The translations under genes and the position numbers were made by a program. Below are positions 18,647 through 30,556 of a stretch of 64,000 nucleotides of DNA, one piece after another; positions within the stretch are counted from its first letter, which is position 1; each line of letters opens with the position of its first letter. This DNA comes from an uncultured Gemmatimonadales bacterium (GTDB taxonomy: Bacteria > Gemmatimonadota > Gemmatimonadetes > Gemmatimonadales > Gemmatimonadaceae). The notes under the pieces were generated by a model that was not told the DNA's origin, did no database searches, and worked only from the letters and a program-made list of their open reading frames with translations. The stretch spans positions 224,001-288,000 of the forward strand of contig OY969695.1 of NCBI GenBank assembly GCA_963701965.1. Direction: 5' to 3'.

Positions 18647-19899
18647 GGGATCTTGCTCCGCTTTAGTTGACACATTGTTGTTAGGTCGTGCGTCGTTCGA
18701 AGGTAGCTGGCGGCGTGTGATCGAGAGACGAGTGCAGCCGCGTGTGGTTGTAGTACCGCAGGTAGGTGTGCAGAGTCTGCCTGAGCTCCTGGTCGCTGTC
18801 GAACCGCTTGCCCCAGAGGAACTCGCTCTTGAGTGAGTGGAAGAACGATTCCATGTGGGCGTTGTCGTTCATCTGACCGGGACGGTTCATGCTCTGCACG
18901 ATGCCGTGGCGGCGCAACGCCGCCTGGTAATCGAAGGCGCCGTACTCGATGCCGCGGTCGGTGTGGAAGATCAGGCCCGGCTCGGGTCGCCGCTTACGCA
19001 CAGCGTGCTGCAACGCTGTTCGGGTTAACTCGGCATCGCGTCTCTTGCTCAGGCTCCAGCCCACAAGCCTGCGTGAGTACTTGTCCATGACGACGGCCAT
19101 GTAGCGCCATTGCTGCCTGACGCGCAGGTAAGTGACGTCACCCACCCAGACTTGGTTGGTGTCTTGAAGCTGCAGGTGGCGCTGCCGGTTGGGGATGCGC
19201 TTGTAGAAGGCCTTCTGGCCCACCCTTCGGCGGCGATAGAGCCGCGCGCTGCGGCCCTGGATGTGTGCGCCGCGCATGAGCCTGGCGACCCGCCGGCGGC
19301 CGATTGATAAGCCCGCCTGCCGCATGGCTTGAGTCACCCGCGGACTGCCGTAGGTGTTCAAGCTGCTCGCGTGGACGCTGCGGATCTGCTCGGTGATGGC
19401 AGCGTCATCGACCTGGTGTTGGCTGGCTCCGCGTGCCTGCCAGGCGTAGAAGCCGGCCCGCGTTACGCCCAGCTGCCTGCACATCATCGCGAGGGGCCAC
19501 GCTTGCCGGTTTGTCCCGATGAAGGCGAAGACTTCGCCTTTCGTTCTGAGACAAACCGGATAGCTTTTTTTAGCAGGTCGTGCTCCATCTGCAGCTGCCG
19601 GTACTTGCCCTCGACTTCGCGCAGCCGCTGTAGCTCCGCTACAGCGGCTGCATCGAGCACCGGTGACTTGCCACTGAGCACGCCGTCTCTGACCTGCTTC
19701 CTCCACTTGGAGAGCATGAAGGGGTGGATGCACAGCGACTCGGCCACATCCTTGACGAGTACGCCGGGCTGCTCGCTCATGCGAACCGCGCGTAGCTTGA
19801 ACTCAAGCCCGTAGCGGTTGATCTTCTTCGGGCCAGGCATGCCCATTTGAGAACTCCTTCCGTTAGGTCAGAGTGTCAATCAAACCGGTGCAAGCTCCA
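18647..19899 (-). mobile_element. IS3-family element inserted in an attC
   Basis: Imperfect IRs GGGATCTTGCTCCGCTTTAGTTGACAC / TGGAGCTTGCACCGGTTTGATTGACAC; flanks GGAGGAC and CGTCCGCTCGATGG are attC sequence. Confidence 0.9.
18681..19846 (-). CDS. IS3 transposase OrfA/OrfB with programmed -1 frameshift
   Basis: OrfA HTH (YGLEFKLRAV), A7G run near 19564-71, OrfB WVGDVTY / HTDRG / NAHMESFFHSLK. Confidence 0.93.
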
Positions 19900-19918
19900 C
19901 GTCCGCTCGATGGAGCGG

Positions 19919-20413
19919 TTAGGCCACATGTTGCGCTTGCTCGAGGACACTACCTGGTAACCAGCAAGCCATCCGAGTGGCGATCGCGCCTTTGCGCCGA
20001 AATGGCTTCGAGATGGGAAAGAAACCCAACGCTTGGTATGCGGCAATAGCGTACGGCGACGAGTTGAGTTCGACGGTTTTGACTTCCGGATAACTCTCTT
20101 CAAGGTGGGCGCGTGCGGCATTCCACAACGCCCGCCCGATGCCCTTGCGCAACTGACTGGGAGCGACAAAGAACAGTTGCACAAGCGTCAAGCGAGGCAA
20201 GAGGATGACTCCGACTACCTGAGCGTCGTGCTCGCACACCAAGCAAAGGGCTGCCTCGGAAAGCTTTAATGCGAGCTTGTCGGCCTGGGTTTCGGCGATG
20301 AACTCGTGCTGAGCCGACAACTCCCAATCTGGGGCAATGTGCGCGGCGAAGCCGGCTTGAACCAGCTGCGAAATGGCCACCGCATCATCAGCGTTCGGTT
20401 GGCGCAGATGCAT
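19919..20413 (-). CDS. GNAT acetyltransferase
   Basis: FVAPSQLRKGIGRAL, NSSPYAIAAYQALGF. Confidence 0.9.
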   Translation of the reverse strand: MHLRQPNADDAVAISQLVQAGFAAHIAPDWELSAQHEFIAETQADKLALKLSEAALCLVCEHDAQVVGVILLPRLTLVQLFFVAPSQLRKGIGRALWNAARAHLEESYPEVKTVELNSSPYAIAAYQALGFFPISKPFRRKGAIATRMACWLPGSVLEQAQHVA

Positions 20414-20421
20414 GCTCGTGG

Positions 20422-20499
20422 GTCTAACGTTTGAGATGAGCGGCGGCCGCAGGCAAGCGCAGCTTGCCGGAGGACGTCCACTCGATGGAAGGGCTAGGC
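20422..20499 (-). other. attC site (first cassette)
   Basis: GTCTAACGTTTGAGATGAGCGG...CCACTCGATGGAAGGGCTAGGC. Confidence 0.88.
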
Positions 20500-20525
20500 C
20501 TCAGTGGACAACACATGGCATTCGT

Positions 20526-21068
20526 CTACGCACTCGCCTTGGGCCACCCGACGTTTGCAGCACGACGAAGACTGGCTTTCACAACCTGGCGATGAAAGGG
20601 AGCAATGACCGATAGGTAGGCTCGGCCCAAGCGGTTGTGGCAGTAAACGACGGTTGATAGGGTCAGTTGGCTACCGGTAGTTGGCGGCGAGCCTGGCGTA
20701 CAAAGAATTGACACTCTGAAGTCAAGATGCTTGTCGTTCTCGCCTAAGACGACCTCAGTTTCGCTGGTGCTGAAGACCCTGAAGATGCTGATGCGGGGGG
20801 CTGTGGCATCACTAGAGAGCGTTGCAAGGTGCTTGGCGGTCTTCAGACCAAATCCCGCAACGATTGCATCTCGGACTTGGATGAGCGCTCCGATCCAAGA
20901 TGGCTGCTCCGCGAAGATGAATCGGGCCAAGACATCTGGATTTATAGAGGCGTCAGAAGGAAGTCGAATCGAAAACGCGTCTGCGAGGTTCACCGACTTG
21001 AATGCAGTAGCGACGGCAGACTGCGAGGGCAGGGCAACCTGCTCTACTAGCGTGAGTTTGCCTGGCAT
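20526..21068 (-). CDS. DUF2867 family protein
   Basis: EVVLGENDKHLDFRVS, HNRLGRAYLSVIAPFHR. Confidence 0.9.
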   Translation of the reverse strand: MPGKLTLVEQVALPSQSAVATAFKSVNLADAFSIRLPSDASINPDVLARFIFAEQPSWIGALIQVRDAIVAGFGLKTAKHLATLSSDATAPRISIFRVFSTSETEVVLGENDKHLDFRVSILCTPGSPPTTGSQLTLSTVVYCHNRLGRAYLSVIAPFHRQVVKASLRRAANVGWPKASA

Positions 21069-21084
21069 GGATGGACCTTCTGAG

Positions 21085-21170
21085 GCCTAACGAACAGCGT
21101 TTGTCTGACGCCGAGCCGATGTCTGTCGAAGGGCGTGACGGGACATGGCGTCAGATAAACCCCGTTGGAC
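21085..21170 (-). other. Putative attI region
   Basis: GTTAGGC core before the first cassette with a non-consensus flank and a 14-bp inverted repeat. Confidence 0.6.
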
Positions 21171-21529
21171 TGAACCGCCGATATGGCGGTGCGCTATGGG
21201 CAGTGTAAGTTTCGGCGCTGAGCTAAGGCAACGCCGTCGTGCTGCGGACGAACCCGATAGCGGTGATGGTTGCTCGAAGTTGTCTTCGAATGGCGCTCGG
21301 AGTCGAGTTTGCCGCCACGGCCCGTGGCTCGATGCCTGGTAGTAGCGAAGCAGACGCGATACGTTCCCGGCCTGCGTCGACGAGGCCTTGCAGGAGACAG
21401 CCGCGCGCCCGAGCCCATCAGGGCGGCCTCCGACATGCGGTCGACGCGGCGATCGAGGTCAGCGCCGGCCGATCAGCCGCCACGTGCTGCAGCACTCGCC
21501 AGCGTCCGATACTGCAATCAGGGGCCATC

Positions 21530-21972
21530 CCGGTCGGTGATGGCGAGGTAGGTCTCGTCGAGCTCGACCATCCCCCAGACGATCGCGATCGGGCCGCACC
21601 ATCGCCCGGCGAAACCGGTACAGCATCGCCCAGGCGGTCTGGTAACTGCCCAGCCCGAGCACCCGCTGCAGCCCCAAGGCGCTCAGGCCCTGCTTCTGGT
21701 TGGTCAGGTACAAGGCCGCAGCCGGCCAGACCCGCGGCGGGGTGCGGGTCTTGTCGAAGATCGTTCCCGCCGTCACGGTGCTCTGGTGGCGCGCAGTCCT
21801 TGCACATCATGCGGATGCGGCTGGCACGGTAGGACACGCTCGCCACGCCGCAGCTCGGGCAGATGAAGCCGTTCGGCCAGCGCAATCCCTCCAGGTAGGC
21901 AAGGCACGCGTCCTCGGTCGAGAACTGATCGAGGAACTCGGTCCAGGTGCGTGGATAAGGTTGACTGGACAT
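21530..21972 (-). pseudogene. Truncated IS1595-family transposase
   Basis: YPRT..EF...LRWPNGFICPSC zinc ribbon, TAGTIFDKTRTP, SALGLQRVLGLGSYQTAW; stops after LDETY. Confidence 0.85.
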
Positions 21973-21982
21973 GAGCGATAAG

Positions 21983-21998
21983 CTGTATATTTATCCAG
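21983..21998. promoter_or_regulatory. LexA (SOS) box
   Basis: CTGTATATTTATCCAG fits CTG-N10-CAG; 19 nt from the intI start once the intron is removed. Confidence 0.85.
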
Positions 21999-22000
21999 TA

Positions 22001-23930
22001 GTGCGCCGGGAGGCCGGCAAGGAGTAGAGGGGTGAGAGTCCCCGACGACCAAGACGTAGCGAGTCATGTTGTCCCCGAGTCATGCGCAGCGCATCGCGAG
22101 GTGTGCGGCGAAGCGTTGACAGGGGTGCGTGTAGGCCAGCCATTGAGCCACGAAATGTTTATTCAGACCCGGGTGCCGACGCCGTTACTGTGGCGGAAGG
22201 CAACACGCGCGGGCGCGCCATCGCAAGTGCCCGTGCGACCCGGCGGGGTCAGAGACCCTGGCATGCACGTACGCTCCTTGCACGGGAACCGGGAGATCTG
22301 CGAACCGACCAAGCGCTGGAGCGATCCGGTGGAGGTCCGCGTCGGGAAGGCGAGGAGCCGAAGCCGATGATGAACGGGACGCAGAAGTCAGACTCGCCCA
22401 TAGTAGCGATGAAGCCGGCGAACAAACCCGAACGCCTGATGGCAGGGGCGGGTGCGGAGTCGGTGGAGCCAAGGGGCGGGGCCAAGGGGAACGCGGACCA
22501 GTCACGCACGTGCCGGACGCAGGGCCGGGAAAGCGTGTTCCAGAGGCTGGATCGCGTGCGCCAAGCCGCAAGGCAGAGGAAGAAGGAGAAGTTCACCGCG
22601 CTGATGCACCTTGTCGATGTCGAACTGCTCAGAGAGTCGTACTTCTGGCTACAGCGGAAGGCGGCCGCCGGGGTGGATGGCGTCACATGGCAACAGTACG
22701 GCGAAGGCCTCGAAGAACGGCTCGAGCAACTGCACGGGCGCATCCACCGCAACGCCTACCTGGCGACGCCGTCCCGGCGCCAGTACATCCCCAAAGCAGA
22801 CGGTCGCATGCGGCCGCTGGGGATCGCGGCGCTCGAAGACAAGATCGTCCAGCGGGCGCTGGTGGAAGTGCTCAACGCGGTCTATGAGCAAGACTTCTTG
22901 GGCTTCTCGTACGGGTTCAGGCCGCAACGCAGCCAGCATCAAGCGCTGGACGCGTTGGCGGTTGGCATCACGCGTACCAATGTGAGCTGGATCGTGGACG
23001 CCGACATCAAGAGCTTCTTCGACGCGGTCAGCCACGCGTGGTTGATCAAGTTCCTGGAGCACCGAATCGGCGACCCACGCATCATTCGCCTCATAGGCAA
23101 ATGGCTGAAGGCCGGCACGCTGGAAGAAGGCAAGCTGGTGGCAAGCGAGGAGGGCACGCCGCAAGGCGCGGTCATCTCGCCGCTGCTGGCCAACATCTAC
23201 CTGCACTACGTCTTCGATCTCTGGGCACATCAATGGCGCCAGCGCCATGCTCGGGGCAACGTGGTGATCGTGCGCTACGCCGACGATATCGTGGTCGGCG
23301 TGGACAAGGAGTCGGATGCCACGCGCTTCGTGCAGGCGATGCGATCGAGACTGGAGCAGTTCAAGCTAACGCTGCATCCCGAAAAGACCCAGGTGATCCG
23401 GTTCGGCCGCTTCGCGGCGGCCAACCGGGCCAAGCGAGGTCTGGGCAAACCGCAGACGTTCGACTTCCTCGGGTTCACGCACATCAGCGGGCACGACCGA
23501 CGCGGCAAGTTCTTGCTGCAGCGGATCACCCGGCGCGACCGGATGGTTGCTACGCTGAAGCGGATCAAGGAAGAGTTGCGGCGGCGTTGGCACATCTCGG
23601 TCCACGAGCAAGGGAAGTGGCTGCGCAAGGTGGTGCAGGGTTACTTCGGCTACCACGCCGTGCCCGGCAACTACCCGCGCATGAAGGCGTTCCGAAACCA
23701 CGTCACCGACCTCTGGCGAAAGGCGCTGCGGCGCCGGGGCCAGCGGGATCGGACGACGTGGAAGAAGGCGTTCCGGTTGGCCGCGGAGTGGTTGCCCCGA
23801 GCTCGTGTCCTTCACCCCTGGCCGAACCAGCGCTTCGACGCCACCCACCCAAGGCAGGAGCCCGGTGCGCGAATCGTGCACGCCGGGATCTGTGCGGGGG
23901 GCGCCCGGTAACGGGTGGCCCTATCGCGAT
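22001..23930 (+). mobile_element. Group II intron (probably bacterial class E-like)
   Basis: 5' GTGCG; domain V GAGCCCGGTGCGCGAATCGTGCACGCCGGGATCTG; 3' CCCTATCGCGAT. Confidence 0.92.
22367..23911 (+). CDS. ltrA: Group II intron reverse transcriptase/maturase
   Basis: IPKADG..RPLGI, SYGFRP, GTPQGAVISPLLANIYL, RYADD, FDFLGF; open frame, no HNH domain seen. Confidence 0.95.
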   Translation: MMNGTQKSDSPIVAMKPANKPERLMAGAGAESVEPRGGAKGNADQSRTCRTQGRESVFQRLDRVRQAARQRKKEKFTALMHLVDVELLRESYFWLQRKAAAGVDGVTWQQYGEGLEERLEQLHGRIHRNAYLATPSRRQYIPKADGRMRPLGIAALEDKIVQRALVEVLNAVYEQDFLGFSYGFRPQRSQHQALDALAVGITRTNVSWIVDADIKSFFDAVSHAWLIKFLEHRIGDPRIIRLIGKWLKAGTLEEGKLVASEEGTPQGAVISPLLANIYLHYVFDLWAHQWRQRHARGNVVIVRYADDIVVGVDKESDATRFVQAMRSRLEQFKLTLHPEKTQVIRFGRFAAANRAKRGLGKPQTFDFLGFTHISGHDRRGKFLLQRITRRDRMVATLKRIKEELRRRWHISVHEQGKWLRKVVQGYFGYHAVPGNYPRMKAFRNHVTDLWRKALRRRGQRDRTTWKKAFRLAAEWLPRARVLHPWPNQRFDATHPRQEPGARIVHAGICAGGAR

Positions 23931-23947
23931 TCAATTCGGGAGTGCAA

Positions 23948-24229
23948 GTGGACAACGCCAGCGGCCGCGTCGAGGCTGAATGTGGACGATCGGCGCCGTT
24001 TCGGTTGCTCGATGCCTTGCGCGAGCGCCTGCGGTACATGCACTACAGCTTACGGACCGAGGAAGCCTATGTCCATTGGGTGCGCGGCTTCGTACGGTGG
24101 TCGGGTCGACGCCATCCGCGCGACATGGGTGCGGCGGAGGTGCGCGATTTCCTGACCATGCTGGCGAGCGAGCGGCGCGTCGCCGCGGCCGCGCACCGGC
24201 AAGCCCTCAGCGCGCTGCTGTTCCTCTAG
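23948..24229 (+). pseudogene. intI: Integron integrase, N-terminal domain only
   Basis: [27 protein letters not shown]...HPRDMG..EV..FL..LA.ER.V....[11 protein letters not shown] then TAG. Confidence 0.9.
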
Positions 24230-27200
24230 TGCTACCGCGCTACGCCGAGCTTCACTGTCGCAGCAACTTCAGCTTCCTGACGGGCGCGTCGCATCCCGAG
24301 GAGCTGGTCGAGCGCGCCGCCGCGCTCGGCTACGGCGCGATCGCGATCACCGACGAGTGCTCGCTCGCCGGCGTCGTGCGCGCGCACGTCGAGGCGCAGG
24401 CGCAAAAGCTGCCGCTCGTCATCGGCAGCGAGATCCGCCTCACCGATGCCGAGACCGGCGCGCCGCATGCGCGTCTGGTGCTGCTGGCGCAGTCGCGGCG
24501 CGGCTATGGCAACCTCGCCCACTGGATCACAGTCGCGCGTCGTCGAGTCGAGAAGGGCCACTACCGCGCCCATCCGGGCGACGTCGAAGGCAAGGTGCCC
24601 AATGCGCCGATGCTCGCCGGCCTCGGCGGCTGCTTCGCCTTGCTCGTGCCCGCGGCTTCGCAGGATCCTGCCGAGATCCTGGCCCACGCGACTTGGCTCA
24701 AGAGCTGGTTCCAGGAGCGTGCGGCGATCGCCATCGAGCTGCTCCATCGCGCCGCCGACGACGATCTCGTCGACCACGTCACCGAGGTCGCGGCGCGCAC
24801 CGGCCTGCCGATCGTCGCCGCCGGCGACGTGCTGATGCACGTGCGCTCGCGAAAGCCCCTGCAGGACACGCTGACGGCGACGCGCCTCGCCAAGTCGGTG
24901 GCCGAGTGCGGCCTCGCGCTCGAGCCCAACGCCGAGCAGCACCTGCGCTCGAAGAGCCGCCTGGCCGCGCTCTACGAGCCGGCGTGGCTCGAGCAGACGA
25001 TGGCGATCGTCGCGGACTGCAAGTTCTCGCTCAGCGAGCTGAAGTACGAGTACCCGCAGGAGATCGTGCCGCCGGGCGAGACGCCGGCGTCGCAGCTGCG
25101 AAAGCTCACCTACGCGGGCGCGCTGAAGCGCTTCCCGCAGGGCCTGCCCGACGAGCACCGCGCGACGATCGAGCACGAACTCGGAGTCATCGCCGAGCTG
25201 CAGTACGAGTCGTACTTCCTCACCGTCGCCGACATCGTCGACTGGGCGCGCGAGAAGAATATCCTGTGCCAGGGCCGCGGCAGCGCCGCCAACTCGCTGG
25301 TTTGCTACTGCCTGCACGTCACCGAGGTCGACCCGCGCCGCGCCAGCCTGCTGTTCGGCCGCTTCATCAGCGTCGAGCGCAAGGAGCCGCCCGACATCGA
25401 CATCGACTTCGAGCACCAGCGGCGCGAGGAGGTGATCCAGTACATCTACGGCAAGTACGGCCGGCACCGCGCCGCGCTCGCCGCGGTGGTAATCAGCTAC
25501 CGGCCGCGCTCGGCGCTGCGCGACGTCGGCCGCGCCCTCGGCATCGACCTGCAGCGGATCGAGGCGGTGTCGAAGAGCCAGCACTGGTTCGACGGCCGCG
25601 GCATCGCGCCCGAGCGGCTGCGCGAGAACGGCTTCGATCCGGAATCTCCGGTGGTCCAGCTCTGGATGGAGCTCACCGGCCAGCTGATCGGCTTCCCGCG
25701 CCACCTCTCGCAGCATCCGGGCGGCTTCGTCATCGGCAAGAACCAGATCGAGGAGCTGGTGCCGATCGAGAACGCGGCGATGGAAGACCGGAGCGTCATC
25801 CAGTGGGACAAGGACGACCTCGAATCGCTTGGGTTGCTGAAGGTCGACATCCTCGCCATCGGCATGCTGAGCGCGATCCGCCGCTCGCTCGAGTACATCG
25901 GCACCAAGCTCGGCCGCACGCCGCTCATGATGCAGGAGATCGGCGAGGGCGACGTGCCGACCTACGACATGATCTGCAAGGCCGACACCGTCGGCGTGTT
26001 CCAGATCGAGAGCCGGGCGCAGATGAGCATGCTGCCGCGCCTGAAGCCGCGCTGCTACTACGACCTAGTGGTCGAGGTGGCGATCGTCCGGCCGGGGCCG
26101 ATCCAGGGCGGCATGGTTCATCCGTACCTGAAGAACCGCACGCTCGCCGACCGCGAGATCGACTGTCCCGAGGAGCTCAAGCCGGCGCTGCTGCGAACCA
26201 AGGGCGTGCCGATCTTCCAGGAGCAGGTGATGCAGATCGCCATGCTCGCCGCCGACTTCACCGCCGGCGAGGCCGATGCGCTGCGCCGCGCGATGGCGGC
26301 GTGGAAGCGGCGCGGCGGCCTGTCGCCGTTCCACAAGCGGCTGGTGGGCCGGATGGTCGAGAAGGGCTACACGCGCGAATACGCCGAGCGCATCTTCAAG
26401 CAGATCCAGGGCTTCGGCGAATACGGCTTTCCGGAAAGCCACGCCGCCGGCTTCGCGCTGCTCGCCTACGTCAGCAGCTGGATCAAGTGCCACCATCCCG
26501 ACGCCTTCCTCTGCGGCCTGCTCAACGCCCAGCCGATGGGCTTCTACGCGCCGGCGCAGCTGGTGCGCGATGCGCGCGAGCACGGCGTCGAGGTGCTGCC
26601 GGTCGACGTCGCGGTGAGCGACTGGGAAAGCACGATGGCGGGCGAGGGCAGCGCGAGCGCCGGGGCCGGCCCGCTCGGCCAGGGTGGCGCCGCAGCAGCC
26701 GGTCCGGCTCGGCCTCAACCGCGTCAAGGGGCTCGCCGAAGAGGCCGGCCGGCGCGTCGTCGCTGCGCGCGCCGAGGCGGCCTTCGTCAGCGTCGAAGAC
26801 CTGGCGCGGCGCGCCCTCCTCGACGCCCATGCCCTGGCGGTGCTCGCCGAATCGGGGGCACTGCAGGCGCTCACCGGCCATCGCTACCAGGCGGCGTGGG
26901 CGGTGGCGGGAATCGACACCCGGCCGACCGAGATGCTGCGCGCGACGCGTAGCCACGAAACCGGCGTGGCGCTGGCCGCGCCGAGCGAGGGCGAGGAAAC
27001 GCTCGCCGACTACCGCGCCCTCGGACTGACGCTGCAACGCCATCCGCTCGCCCTGCTGCGGCCGCAGCTCGCCGCCTTCCGCATCGAGCCGGCGGCGCGC
27101 TTGCGCACTTTTCCGAACGGCCGGCTGGCGCGTGCGAGCGGCCTGGTGACGCACCGGCAGCGGCCCGAGACGGCCAAGGGAACGGTCTTCGTCACGCTCG

Positions 27201-27415
27201 AGGACGAGACCGGCGCGGTCAACGTCATCGTCTGGCCGCGCGTCGCCGAGGCGCAGAGGAAGCCGCTGCTCGGCGCGACCCTTCTTACCGTCTACGGCCA
27301 ATGGCAGCGCCAGGGCGAGGGCGACGAGGCGGTGATGCACCTCGTCGCCGCGAAGATGATCGACCACACGTCGCTGCTCAAGGGCCTGGTCACGCGCAGC
27401 CGCGACTTCCGCTAG
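24229..27415 (+). CDS. dnaE2: Error-prone DNA polymerase DnaE2/ImuC (frameshift near 26680)
   Basis: YAELHCRSNFSFL, GRGSAANS, EPPDIDIDFE, C-terminal SRDFR. Confidence 0.95.
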
Positions 27416-28677: not shown

Positions 28678-30556
28678 GTGCGCCCGGCACGGGCGCACTC
28701 TTGCGGGTGCAAGTCCCGCCGTAAGTTGATCACAGCGAACGAAGTGAAACGCAACTGCATGAGGGTGACCGAGTGTGGGGAGGAAGCGTGGATCGAAGCT
28801 GCGAGCCGATGAACAAGAACCGGATAGAAGGCGCTGCCAAGCAGGGCGAGCGGGCCATGAACCGCGAAGCTCTCGTGATCAAGGCGAGGTGGCGTAGATC
28901 CGGCGGTTGTGCAGCGAAGGAGTGCGTTCTTACCCGGGGAGATCTCGCCTTGCGCCTGAAAGGGCGACGGCCTATGCCGGAGCGAGAAGTCAGCAGAGGT
29001 CGTAGTAGTGCCGGTAGCCTGCCGCTGAGGCGAGAGTGAAAGCGCGAAGGGCCGAACGAGAGTAAGTGACCGAAGACATGGGGATGTCAGAAGGCCATGC
29101 GTCAGATGCCGGAGCAATCCGGGCGGGTGGGCGTAGCGCGCGGTGAAGCCGGGCGTGAAGCTGCCAGTGACGAAGCCTGCGGCCCGCCCAATGAGCACCC
29201 GGGCACGGGTCGGCAAGGCCGAAGGCGGGGGCTGGCACCCTGCTGGAGGCGGCGCTGACGAGAGAACCTGCAGGTGGCGTGGAAGCGGGTCAAGGCCAAC
29301 AAGGGCGCAGCAGGGGTGGACGGGCTCGACATCGAGCAGACGGCTCAAACGCTGGCGCACGAGGTGGCCGCAGATACGCGAAGCGTTGCTGGCGGGCAAG
29401 TACCGGCCTGAGCCGGTGCGAAGGGTGATGCTCCAAGCCGGACGGGAGCGAGCGCGAGCTGGGCATCCCCACGGTGCTGGATCGGCTGATCCAGCAGGCA
29501 CTGCTGCAAGTGCTGCAACCCTGATCGACCCCACCTTCAGCGAACACAGCCAGGGGTTTCGTCCGGGGCGGCGGGCGCACGACGCGGTCACGGCTGCGCG
29601 GGCGTACGTGCAAACGGGCAAGCGCGTGGTGGTGGACGTGGACCTGGCGAAGTTCTTCGACCGGGTCAACCACGACATCCTGATAGACCGGCTGCGCAAG
29701 CGCATCGACGATGCTGGAGTGATCCGGCTGGTGCGGGCGTACCTGAGCGCCGGGATCATGGATGGCGGGGTGGTGGTCGAGCGCCACATGGGCACGCCGC
29801 AAGGCGGGCCGCTGTCACCGTTGCTGGCCAACGTGTTGCTGGACGAAGTGGATAAGGTCTTGGAGGCGCGGGGCTACAGCTTCGCCCGCTATGCCGATGA
29901 CTGCAACGTCTATGTGGGCAGCATGAAGGCTGGGCAGCGGGTGATGGCGCTGCTGGGAGGGCTGTACGCCGGGCTCAAGCTTCAGATCAACGCAGTCAAG
30001 AGCGCGGTGGGCAGTGCATTGGGGCGCAAGTTCCTGGGCTACGCGCTGTGGGGGGCCGAGGGCCGGGAGGTCAAATGCGCCGTGGCCGCCAAGCCACTGC
30101 GGGACTTCAAGGCCCGTATCCGGCAGCTCACACGCCGCTCGGGCGGGCGCAGCATGGAGCAAGTGGTGCAGGGATTGCGGCCGTACCTGCTGGGCTGGAA
30201 GGCGTACTTCGGGCTGGCGCAAACACCCGAAGGTCTGGCGCGGGCTGGACGAGTGGCTGCGTCACCGATTGCGAGCGATCCAGCTCAGACACTGGAAGCG
30301 GCCGGCGACGATGTACCGCGAGCTCAAGGCACTTGGCGCGGGGGAAACGGTTGCGCAGGCGAGTGGCGGTCAACAGTCGCCGCTGGTGGCGTAACAGTGA
30401 TGGCCTGCTCAAGACCGTGCTGACCATTGCCTACTTCGACAGACTGGGCGTACCCAGGCTCTCATGACCTCAAGCTCTCGAACCGCCCGGTGCGGACCCG
30501 CATGCCGGGTGGTGTGGCAGGGGTGCCTCCTCTAATGGAGCGCCCCCTATGCCGAT
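28678..30556 (+). mobile_element. Group IIC intron
   Basis: 5' GTGCGCCCGGCACGGGCG after a terminator; domain V GAACCGCCCGGTGCGGACCCGCATGCCGGGTGGTG; 3' CTATGCCGAT. Confidence 0.93.
29078..30467 (+). CDS. ltrA: Group IIC intron RT/maturase (several frameshifts)
   Basis: [40 protein letters not shown]. Confidence 0.85.

Follow-up and report, generated by a model that had tools for sequence, protein, structure and literature searches.

We analysed the window, a 64,000-nucleotide (nt) stretch of contig OY969695.1 from an uncultured Gemmatimonadales bacterium, and focus here on a complete group II intron that encodes a protein without an endonuclease domain. The exon-binding site (EBS) loops of this intron are complementary to the operator of LexA, the global repressor of the SOS response. 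We consider it highly probable that these loops lead the intron, by a predicted reverse-splicing reaction, to positions just past LexA operators, and that the local copy occupies a LexA-like box in an IS1595-family insertion sequence (IS). The features are collected in Table 1.

The intron begins with GTGCG at 22001, immediately 3' of CTGTATATTTATCCAGTA (21983-22000). An initial annotation of this DNA had placed the start directly after a LexA-type box, and all the letters that it named were found in place. The box, CTGTATATTTATCCAG, follows the CTG-N10-CAG pattern (CTGT-N8-ACAG class) with an AT-rich spacer. The ribozyme matches Rfam model RF02005 (group-II-D1D4-6) at 22035-22258 over the full model (1-225), with 186.4 bits against a gathering score of 49. 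At the 3' end the intron reads ...CCCUAUCGCGAU, and the terminus ...CCYTAYCGCGAY is common to all relatives. A copy in a different metagenome-assembled genome (MAG; locus L002), 99.85% identical over 1945 nt, gives the same 3' boundary, since its homology to the window begins at 21986 and stops exactly at 23930. That so similar a copy occupies a different LexA box in a different genome suggests recent mobility.

The fold shows an unpaired UA in domain VI. The maturase open reading frame (ORF) matches RVT_1 (E = 8e-43) and TIGR04416 (361.6 bits, cut-off 300), and a YADD motif can be read in its sequence. A domain search of the maturase, with RVT_1 as its sole match, detected no endonuclease domain. 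One copy of the intron is present in the host genome. The hallmarks of a group II intron were all found, namely the ribozyme domains, the ends, the reverse transcriptase/maturase, the pairing between EBS loops and intron-binding sites (IBS) of the exon, and a sign of mobility. The intron appears structurally whole, with a predicted intact ribozyme and reverse transcriptase.

Next, we mapped the guide loops by co-variation. Relatives came from a genome set of 80 loci (the best 80 of 271 confirmed among 312 candidate stretches encoding a relative), a metagenome set of at least 122 stretches recovered with a degenerate pattern of the intron's first 25 bases, and a third set of plasmid copies. We kept introns with a GTGCG start, at least 25 nt of 5' exon and a recognisable hairpin, leaving out any copy that lay at the end of a contig or had a different 5' end, and the 73 distinct intron/exon combinations that passed this filter are the basis of the EBS1 and EBS2 results.

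The candidate EBS1 hairpin of the initial annotation presents TACTGT (22186-91) between CGCC (22180-83) and GGCG (22192-95). This loop pairs at 5/6 positions with the CCAGTA of the window exon and at 6/6 with ACAGTA. Across the 73 combinations, EBS1 pairs with the last 6 bases of its own exon at a mean of 5.74/6 positions, and 77% of the combinations are 6/6, against a mean of 3.87 and a maximum of 4.11 when exons were shuffled among introns (200 shuffles). Examples of loop and exon that change together are UGUCA/TGACA, CUGUUG/CAACAG, UCAGGU/ACCTGA and UACCAA/TTGGTA. Thus, the hairpin loop co-varies with the last 6 exon bases and is EBS1, as had been proposed.

For EBS2, the internal loop initially named was the right one, but its register was not: in the family-wide register EBS2 is AUGUUUAU (22155-62), which overlaps the AAAUGU (22153-58) first suggested. 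This loop co-varies with exon positions of about -14 to -7, pairing at 5.51/6 with its own exons against a mean of 4.83 and a maximum of 5.0 for shuffled exons. We assigned the window register because it is homologous to that of a Ralstonia relative, in which EBS2 AUGUGUAU pairs 8/8 with ATATGCAT, and that of a Burkholderia anthina relative, in which AUGUUUAU pairs 8/8 with ATAAATAT (both counted by hand).

We then compared the insertion sites of the relatives. A LexA-type group, defined by an ACUG-type EBS1 and an AUGU[A/G/U]UAU EBS2, comprises 18 distinct sites. A perfect CTG-N10-CAG stands in the exact register at 16 of these, and the remaining two have one mismatch, in the left half. The pattern was absent from the last 25 nt of the 5' exon in the other clade members (0/52) and in three further introns with ACUG in the hairpin, which carry a GC-type EBS2 (L104) or hold ACUG within the stem (0/3). 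The check that the initial annotation had put forward, an enrichment of LexA boxes at the sites of homologues with this loop, therefore gives 16/18 against 0/55. Together with the mapped EBS1 and EBS2, these sites support its proposal that the SOS operator is a recurrent intron target.

Three sister lineages insert 1-2 nt past the CAG of LexA boxes (window/Ralstonia/Pelomonas, Burkholderia and the enterobacterial Kl.pn.I5), and insertion by all three leaves the 16-bp operator core intact. The box ends 2 nt before the insertion point, with an exon ending in ACAGTA or CCAGTA, in the window, in L002, in L118 and at four Ralstonia sites; it ends 1 nt before, with an exon ending in ACAGT, at two Burkholderia and seven enterobacterial sites. 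In the tree of the intron-encoded proteins (IEPs), the LexA-box lineages lie within one clade of 8 rows (support 87/93). EBS1 is predicted to force the right half of the box. The EBS loops cover no left-half CTG in most lineages, which indicates that the sites are whole operators. The UCAG that follows EBS2 in the window (22163-66) is in register with the left half-site CTG and could pair with it; this UCAG is not found in the Kl.pn.I5 or Burkholderia lineages.

The genes next to the insertion sites were also compared. On two Burkholderia plasmids, the sites lie at imuA, Y-family polymerase and error-prone polymerase genes, with the intron antisense to imuA. A Ralstonia site stands before a hypothetical protein followed by an IMS-family protein, with the intron in sense, and the L002 site belongs to a PA0069-family radical-SAM gene. 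In the K. pneumoniae plasmid p2 the site is that of the cloacin gene, and its LexA box follows TTGACA-N17-TAAGGT. Judged by their letters and neighbours, these insertion sites are operators of known SOS genes, and it is likely that RNA guide loops direct the intron family to SOS operators.

We propose the following mechanism. EBS1 (UACUGU) would read the right half of the operator and EBS2 (AUGUUUAU) its AT-rich spacer, and the intron would then reverse splice into the DNA strand reading ...CAGTA. Since the protein has no endonuclease domain, cDNA synthesis would be primed at replication forks or by replication intermediates. Either strand of the near-palindromic operator may be usable, as introns occur both in sense and antisense to SOS genes. 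Sense copies behind SOS promoters (cloacin, imuA-like/imuB, radical-SAM) would be transcribed upon LexA cleavage and then spliced out. For promoters with the operator inside the transcript, as at cloacin, this would be co-transcription under LexA control.

In Ralstonia, one megaplasmid carries four intron copies, every one at a LexA box. One copy in R. solanacearum has flanks that are 100% identical (295 + 300 nt) to the locus of another strain that holds an IS, and a check of its boundaries joins the exons ...CTGTATATCCATACAGTA and TTCGGCT. Comparison of R. solanacearum megaplasmids (L249 with L278, and L255 with L274) shows two LexA boxes, with 100% identical flanks, that hold the intron in one strain and an IS1595-family element in another.

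Several short contigs also carry relatives. A Pelomonas candidula contig of 1936 nt (L003) contains nothing but the intron, and its 5' edge reads ACAGTA; the coverage in its title is ~140x, and the intron is probably present in multiple copies in that genome. Short contigs with Kl.pn.I5-type introns (L011, L012, L016, L017, L018, L036) also occur in assemblies labelled Streptomyces, Actinomadura, Microbacterium, Kitasatospora, Pedobacter and Arthrobacter. Their flanks are AT-rich and look enterobacterial, the IEP of L011 is identical to that of a Kluyvera copy, and they are probably assembly contamination.

We also looked for the window locus in sequencing runs; parts of the stretch occur in 20 of the 24 runs listed, none of which contains as much as half of its sampled words. 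Four DNA runs yielded short contigs of intron relatives alone, two of which begin at 22002. No contig joining 22000 to 23931, as expected of the empty site, was found among those listed from the four DNA runs. An uninterrupted allele of the locus was likewise not found; the nearest intI sequences are 70% (same order) and 74% (plasmids) identical.

The box in the window appears to be the conserved subterminal LexA-like box of an IS1595-family element, which had inserted at the 5' end of an integron integrase gene (intI). After in-silico removal of the intron, 440 nt of the region show 76% nucleotide identity to ISRama1, and the left end aligns throughout in its layout of terminal repeat, short spacer, CTGGAT..ATACAG box and transposase start. 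The place of the box reads CTGGATGGA[T/A]A[T/C][A/C]CAG in ISRama1, ISCsp2 and a third copy, and CTGGATAAATATACAG on the same strand in the window; CTGGATGGATATACAG corresponds to the box at the same place in the ISRama1/ISCsp2 relatives. The transposase ATG (21972, minus strand) is 10 nt from the box, and the nearest plasmid relatives of the transposase fragment are the ISRama1/ISCsp2 transposases (60-67% amino acid identity over ~60 residues). Elements of the ISRama1/ISCsp2 group are about 1.08 kb long; here, truncation near 21520 has removed the DDE part and the right end. On the other side of the intron, about 23939-23959 holds the terminal repeat in reverse complement. The transposase gene is the sole gene that the box precedes; the intron runs antisense to it, and its co-orientation with the intI remnant would be purely accidental.

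If the box belongs to an IS, it might still be a working LexA operator in this host, for example for one of two LexA paralogues, so that the intron or the transposase is regulated by damage. The host does have two lexA genes (4876423-4877022, minus strand; 864087-864686, plus strand) and one recA (4598991, plus strand), the specificity of the second LexA may differ, and the box fits the CTGT-N8-ACAG class on one half (CTGT...CCAG). However, the 330 nt before recA and before each lexA gene contain no CTG-N10-CAG. AT-rich boxes of this kind (at least 7 A/T in the spacer) number 13 in the 5.1-Mb genome, which has 67% G+C, and the other LexA-like box examined (348492) lies within a coding frame. 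The recognition helix of LexA sets its operator specificity, and here the two host proteins have ATVHEHL or KTVSDLL in place of the NAAEEHL of the aligned E. coli/Pseudomonas-type chains. The recA gene carries GTTCGTAGTTTGTTC, a GTTC-N7-GTTC direct repeat, over its likely -10 region, and the lexA1 promoter has TTCGG repeats 11 nt apart. We therefore regard a working operator as improbable: the box is probably not an SOS operator here.

The absence of the box at recA and lexA, together with the unlike recognition helices, makes SOS-linked expression at this locus unlikely. With the intron antisense to the transposase gene as well, the damage-linked expression that the initial annotation had suggested could not be upheld. 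The intron also appears to be without further targets in the host genome. IS110, IS3 and IS1595 genes, gene cassettes and a second intron surround the locus, and the operator type is very probably foreign to the host, which together point to acquired DNA. Thus, the window copy is likely a silent passenger that came in through, or along with, horizontally transferred DNA.

Homing specific to the IS, with IS1595-family ends as the true site and an incidental likeness to LexA boxes, would also account for the window. The window copy does lie within such an IS, and the ends of these elements hold a conserved CTG-N10-CAG ~34 nt in. Homing into IS elements is, according to the available part of Leclercq and Cordaux (2012, PMC3522654), common among enterobacterial introns. 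However, the window site is the only one of the 18 LexA-type sites found in such an IS, and the other sites examined stand before imuA, cloacin or radical-SAM genes or at other chromosomal boxes. The box of ISRama1 is moreover followed by TG and not TA, a worse match for IBS1. We thus find this explanation very improbable.

The initial annotation had instead read the box as an SOS operator of intI, with the intron induced by damage together with intI and splicing needed for the integrase. Integron integrases of many Gammaproteobacteria are under LexA control. The intron shares the orientation of the intI remnant, and its removal places the box ~20 nt before an in-frame GTG. An integron review (PMC8876359) names LexA 47 times in the available part of its text. 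The TCAATTC-GGGAG-N5-GTG that had been taken for the promoter and ribosome-binding site of intI is indeed present after 23930, but the GGGAG-N5-GTG is contained in the terminal inverted repeat of the IS. An ISRama1/ISCsp2-type left end likewise aligns with the box, with the 10 nt between it and the transposase ATG, and with 23931-23959. An AT-rich CTG-N10-CAG was found from -250 to +60 in none of 29 intI loci of the same order (0/29), so the box is not to be seen as an intI promoter element. The intI gene is furthermore truncated, and the host recA and lexA genes lack the motif. The IS alignment thus largely refutes this model, to which we give still less credence than to homing into the IS.

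Chance adjacency of the intron and a palindromic AT-rich sequence, for which the imperfect pairing in the window is the sole argument, can be practically dismissed, since with 13 boxes in 5.1 Mb it would be expected at about 1e-6 to 1e-5, and related introns show the exact register at 16/18 sites against 0/55.

We return to the preferred reading, that the intron targets LexA operators and resides here in the box of an IS, to set out what weighs against it. Pairing in the window is imperfect, both for IBS1 (5/6, with C-U at -6) and for IBS2 (6/8, with two central U-U mismatches), and L002 and L118 pair with EBS2 at only 5/8 positions (counted by hand). The grouping by EBS type was set after the data had been seen, and the introns are related and not independent, though their sites are distinct. 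One member of the LexA clade of the tree, L022, has an unrelated target and has been retargeted. RF00029 (domains V/VI) does not occur among the Rfam matches listed. The box at the IS end is LexA-like in sequence, and its binder could be LexA or the transposase. A scan of 21700-22100 and 23700-24300 detected neither consensus promoters nor terminators, and so no consensus promoter beside the box; by eye, TTGACT (21961-66)-N19-TATATT can be read, at a spacing outside the scan's range, and we claim no start site for it. Finally, a genome-wide search for GTTC-N7-GTTC gave no clear LexA motif for the host.

LexA boxes also serve as targets for the ISRama1/ISCsp2 elements themselves. Every complete copy that could be resolved (5/5 distinct sites; L262, L263, L269, L274, L278, plasmid records) is flanked by a split LexA box, in the order ACTGT-N8, IS, the same N8, ACAG, and the 8-bp target duplication is the operator spacer (5/5). 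Each end of these elements in addition carries a CTG-N10-CAG box ~34 nt from its tip. The IS remnant in the window resembles them in its left-end layout and in the nucleotide identity given above. Unlike the intron, which lands just outside the operator, these are DNA transposons that enter the N8 spacer with an 8-bp duplication and so split the operator. We found nothing relevant in the literature that ties ISRama1/ISCsp2 or IS1595 to LexA.

We tentatively suggest, with rather less than even confidence, that LexA operators may be a landing pad common to two unrelated element families, the intron clade just outside the operator and ISRama1-type IS1595 elements in its spacer. These families would compete in SOS-proficient Beta- and Gammaproteobacteria and rewire mutagenesis cassettes, bacteriocins and repair genes, and expression and spread of the intron would be gated by LexA cleavage, with DNA damage triggering mobility.

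Table 1 Features of the intron locus in the window.
Feature	Position	Strand	Basis
Group II intron, complete, 1930 nt (GUGCG...CGCGAU)	22001-23930	+	RF02005 match, ends of relatives, near-identical copy
EBS1 hairpin: stem CGCC/GGCG, loop GUUACUGU, EBS1 UACUGU at 22186-91	22180-22195	+	Rfam structure, fold, co-variation with last 6 exon bases
EBS2 AUGUUUAU, unpaired internal loop after conserved CGAAA	22155-22162	+	Unpaired in Rfam structure and minimum-energy fold; co-variation
IBS1 CCAGTA, pairs 5/6 with EBS1	21995-22000	+	Letters, co-variation
IBS2 ATATTTAT, positions -14 to -7, pairs 6/8 with EBS2	21987-21994	+	Family register from Ralstonia and B. anthina; counted by hand
Intron-encoded reverse transcriptase/maturase, 514 amino acids, domain IV	22367-23911	+	RVT_1, TIGR04416
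Domain V hairpin (~23858-23891) and domain VI, bulged A at 23923, 8 nt from 3' end	23858-23930	+	Fold
CTG-N10-CAG box CTGTATATTTATCCAG, E. coli-type LexA operator sequence, IS subterminal box	21983-21998		Letters; comparison with ISRama1/ISCsp2
Truncated, frameshifted IS1595-family element (ISRama1-like); transposase ATG 21972	21520-22000	-	PF12760 zinc ribbon; 76% nt identity
Left end of the same IS with terminal inverted repeat (reverse complement of GGAGTGCAAGTGGACAACGCC)	23931-23959	-	Alignment with left ends of ISRama1, ISCsp2 and third copy
Integron integrase N-terminal remnant	23960-24229	+	Phage_int_SAM_4; NF011946 positions 15-89 of 337

The intI remnant matches integron integrases from about residue 30 of its ORF and is truncated at residue ~104, where a stop cuts it at the ALLFL motif; it adjoins the GTG start of a dnaE2 gene at 24229. 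This gene (24229-27415, plus strand) encodes an error-prone DNA polymerase (dnaE2-type; PRK05672, 1199 bits) and is not preceded by imuA or imuB. The C-terminal HHH/OB part (26618-27415) is read in a different frame, perhaps owing to a frameshift or an assembly error. On the other side of the locus, 19900-21200 (minus strand) holds GNAT acetyltransferase and DUF2867 ORFs with attC-like repeats between them (GTTAGAC/GTTAGGC cores, by eye). This region looks like an integron cassette array that points away from the intI remnant, and it is interrupted by an IS3-family element (18681-19846). A second, unrelated group II intron lies at 28759-30423 (plus strand), with RF02001 at 28759-28929, RF01998 at 28947-29052 and a reverse transcriptase/maturase ORF at 29137-30423.

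The closest named system is Kl.pn.I5 (= Se.ma.I1), for which the K. pneumoniae JM45 plasmid p2 is a named carrier (PMC6764390). It belongs to the same clade and shares the ribozyme type, the architecture of the EBS hairpin and an IEP without endonuclease domain. It also follows LexA boxes, perfect at 7/8 distinct sites, including the box of the cloacin promoter on the JM45 plasmid p2. The two differ in sequence (71.6% nucleotide identity to the copy on plasmid CP006658, ~69% for the IEP) and in register, as Kl.pn.I5 inserts one base earlier, after ACAGT, with EBS1 ACUGUU and EBS2 AUGUAUAU. The window intron thus represents a betaproteobacterial-type sister lineage with a shifted register. Kl.pn.I5 is very abundant on Klebsiella plasmids, to which 3744 of 4423 matching plasmid records belong. 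The homing sites of Kl.pn.I5 were analysed by Leclercq and Cordaux (2012, PMC3522654), and the available part of that main text does not contain the words LexA or SOS.

Other specialised introns offer partial parallels. Class C (IIC-attC) introns, as far as the available parts of the sources describe them, are likewise mobile introns inside integrons that aim at a recurrent regulatory or recombination motif and not at a gene; in contrast, their target is an attC or terminator stem-loop and they use EBS1/EBS3 only. The window intron has an EBS2 and matches RF02005, and its site is neither attC nor terminator, the scan having found no terminator-like site at 21700-22100, so it does not belong to class C. 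The IIB1 intron EcKTE56.groEL, which sits at the groEL stop codon, is in the available part of its description (Gomes et al. 2025, PMC12584367) a lineage that has specialised on one conserved site linked with a stress regulon, and an efficient site-specific retrotransposon. It differs in that its target is a single coding gene and not a multi-copy operator, and it belongs to another lineage. Waldern et al. (2020) described a bias of some intron classes towards replication and repair neighbours, with SOS and LexA unmentioned. In the literature searched, with subscription journals and the Zimmerly database outside its scope, we found no statement of an intron that targets LexA boxes.

Known specialisations of group II introns are for terminators, attC sites, IS elements or individual conserved genes, and the operator of a global repressor would add a niche of a new kind. 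It offers many copies, is conserved across genera, is wired to the DNA-damage response and, being palindromic, can be hit on either strand. As the operator core stays intact, sense copies would be co-induced with SOS genes and then spliced out, and antisense copies would separate promoters from genes such as imuA-imuB-dnaE2. The window copy would be one stranded in a LexA-like box of an IS, in a host with another operator type. For programmable intron tools, the family would show how EBS loops can be adapted in nature to the binding site of a protein. Targeting of LexA boxes could help to explain the bias towards replication and repair neighbours (Waldern et al. 2020). As Kl.pn.I5 matches thousands of records of Klebsiella plasmids, any influence on plasmid genes under SOS control would be a widespread one.

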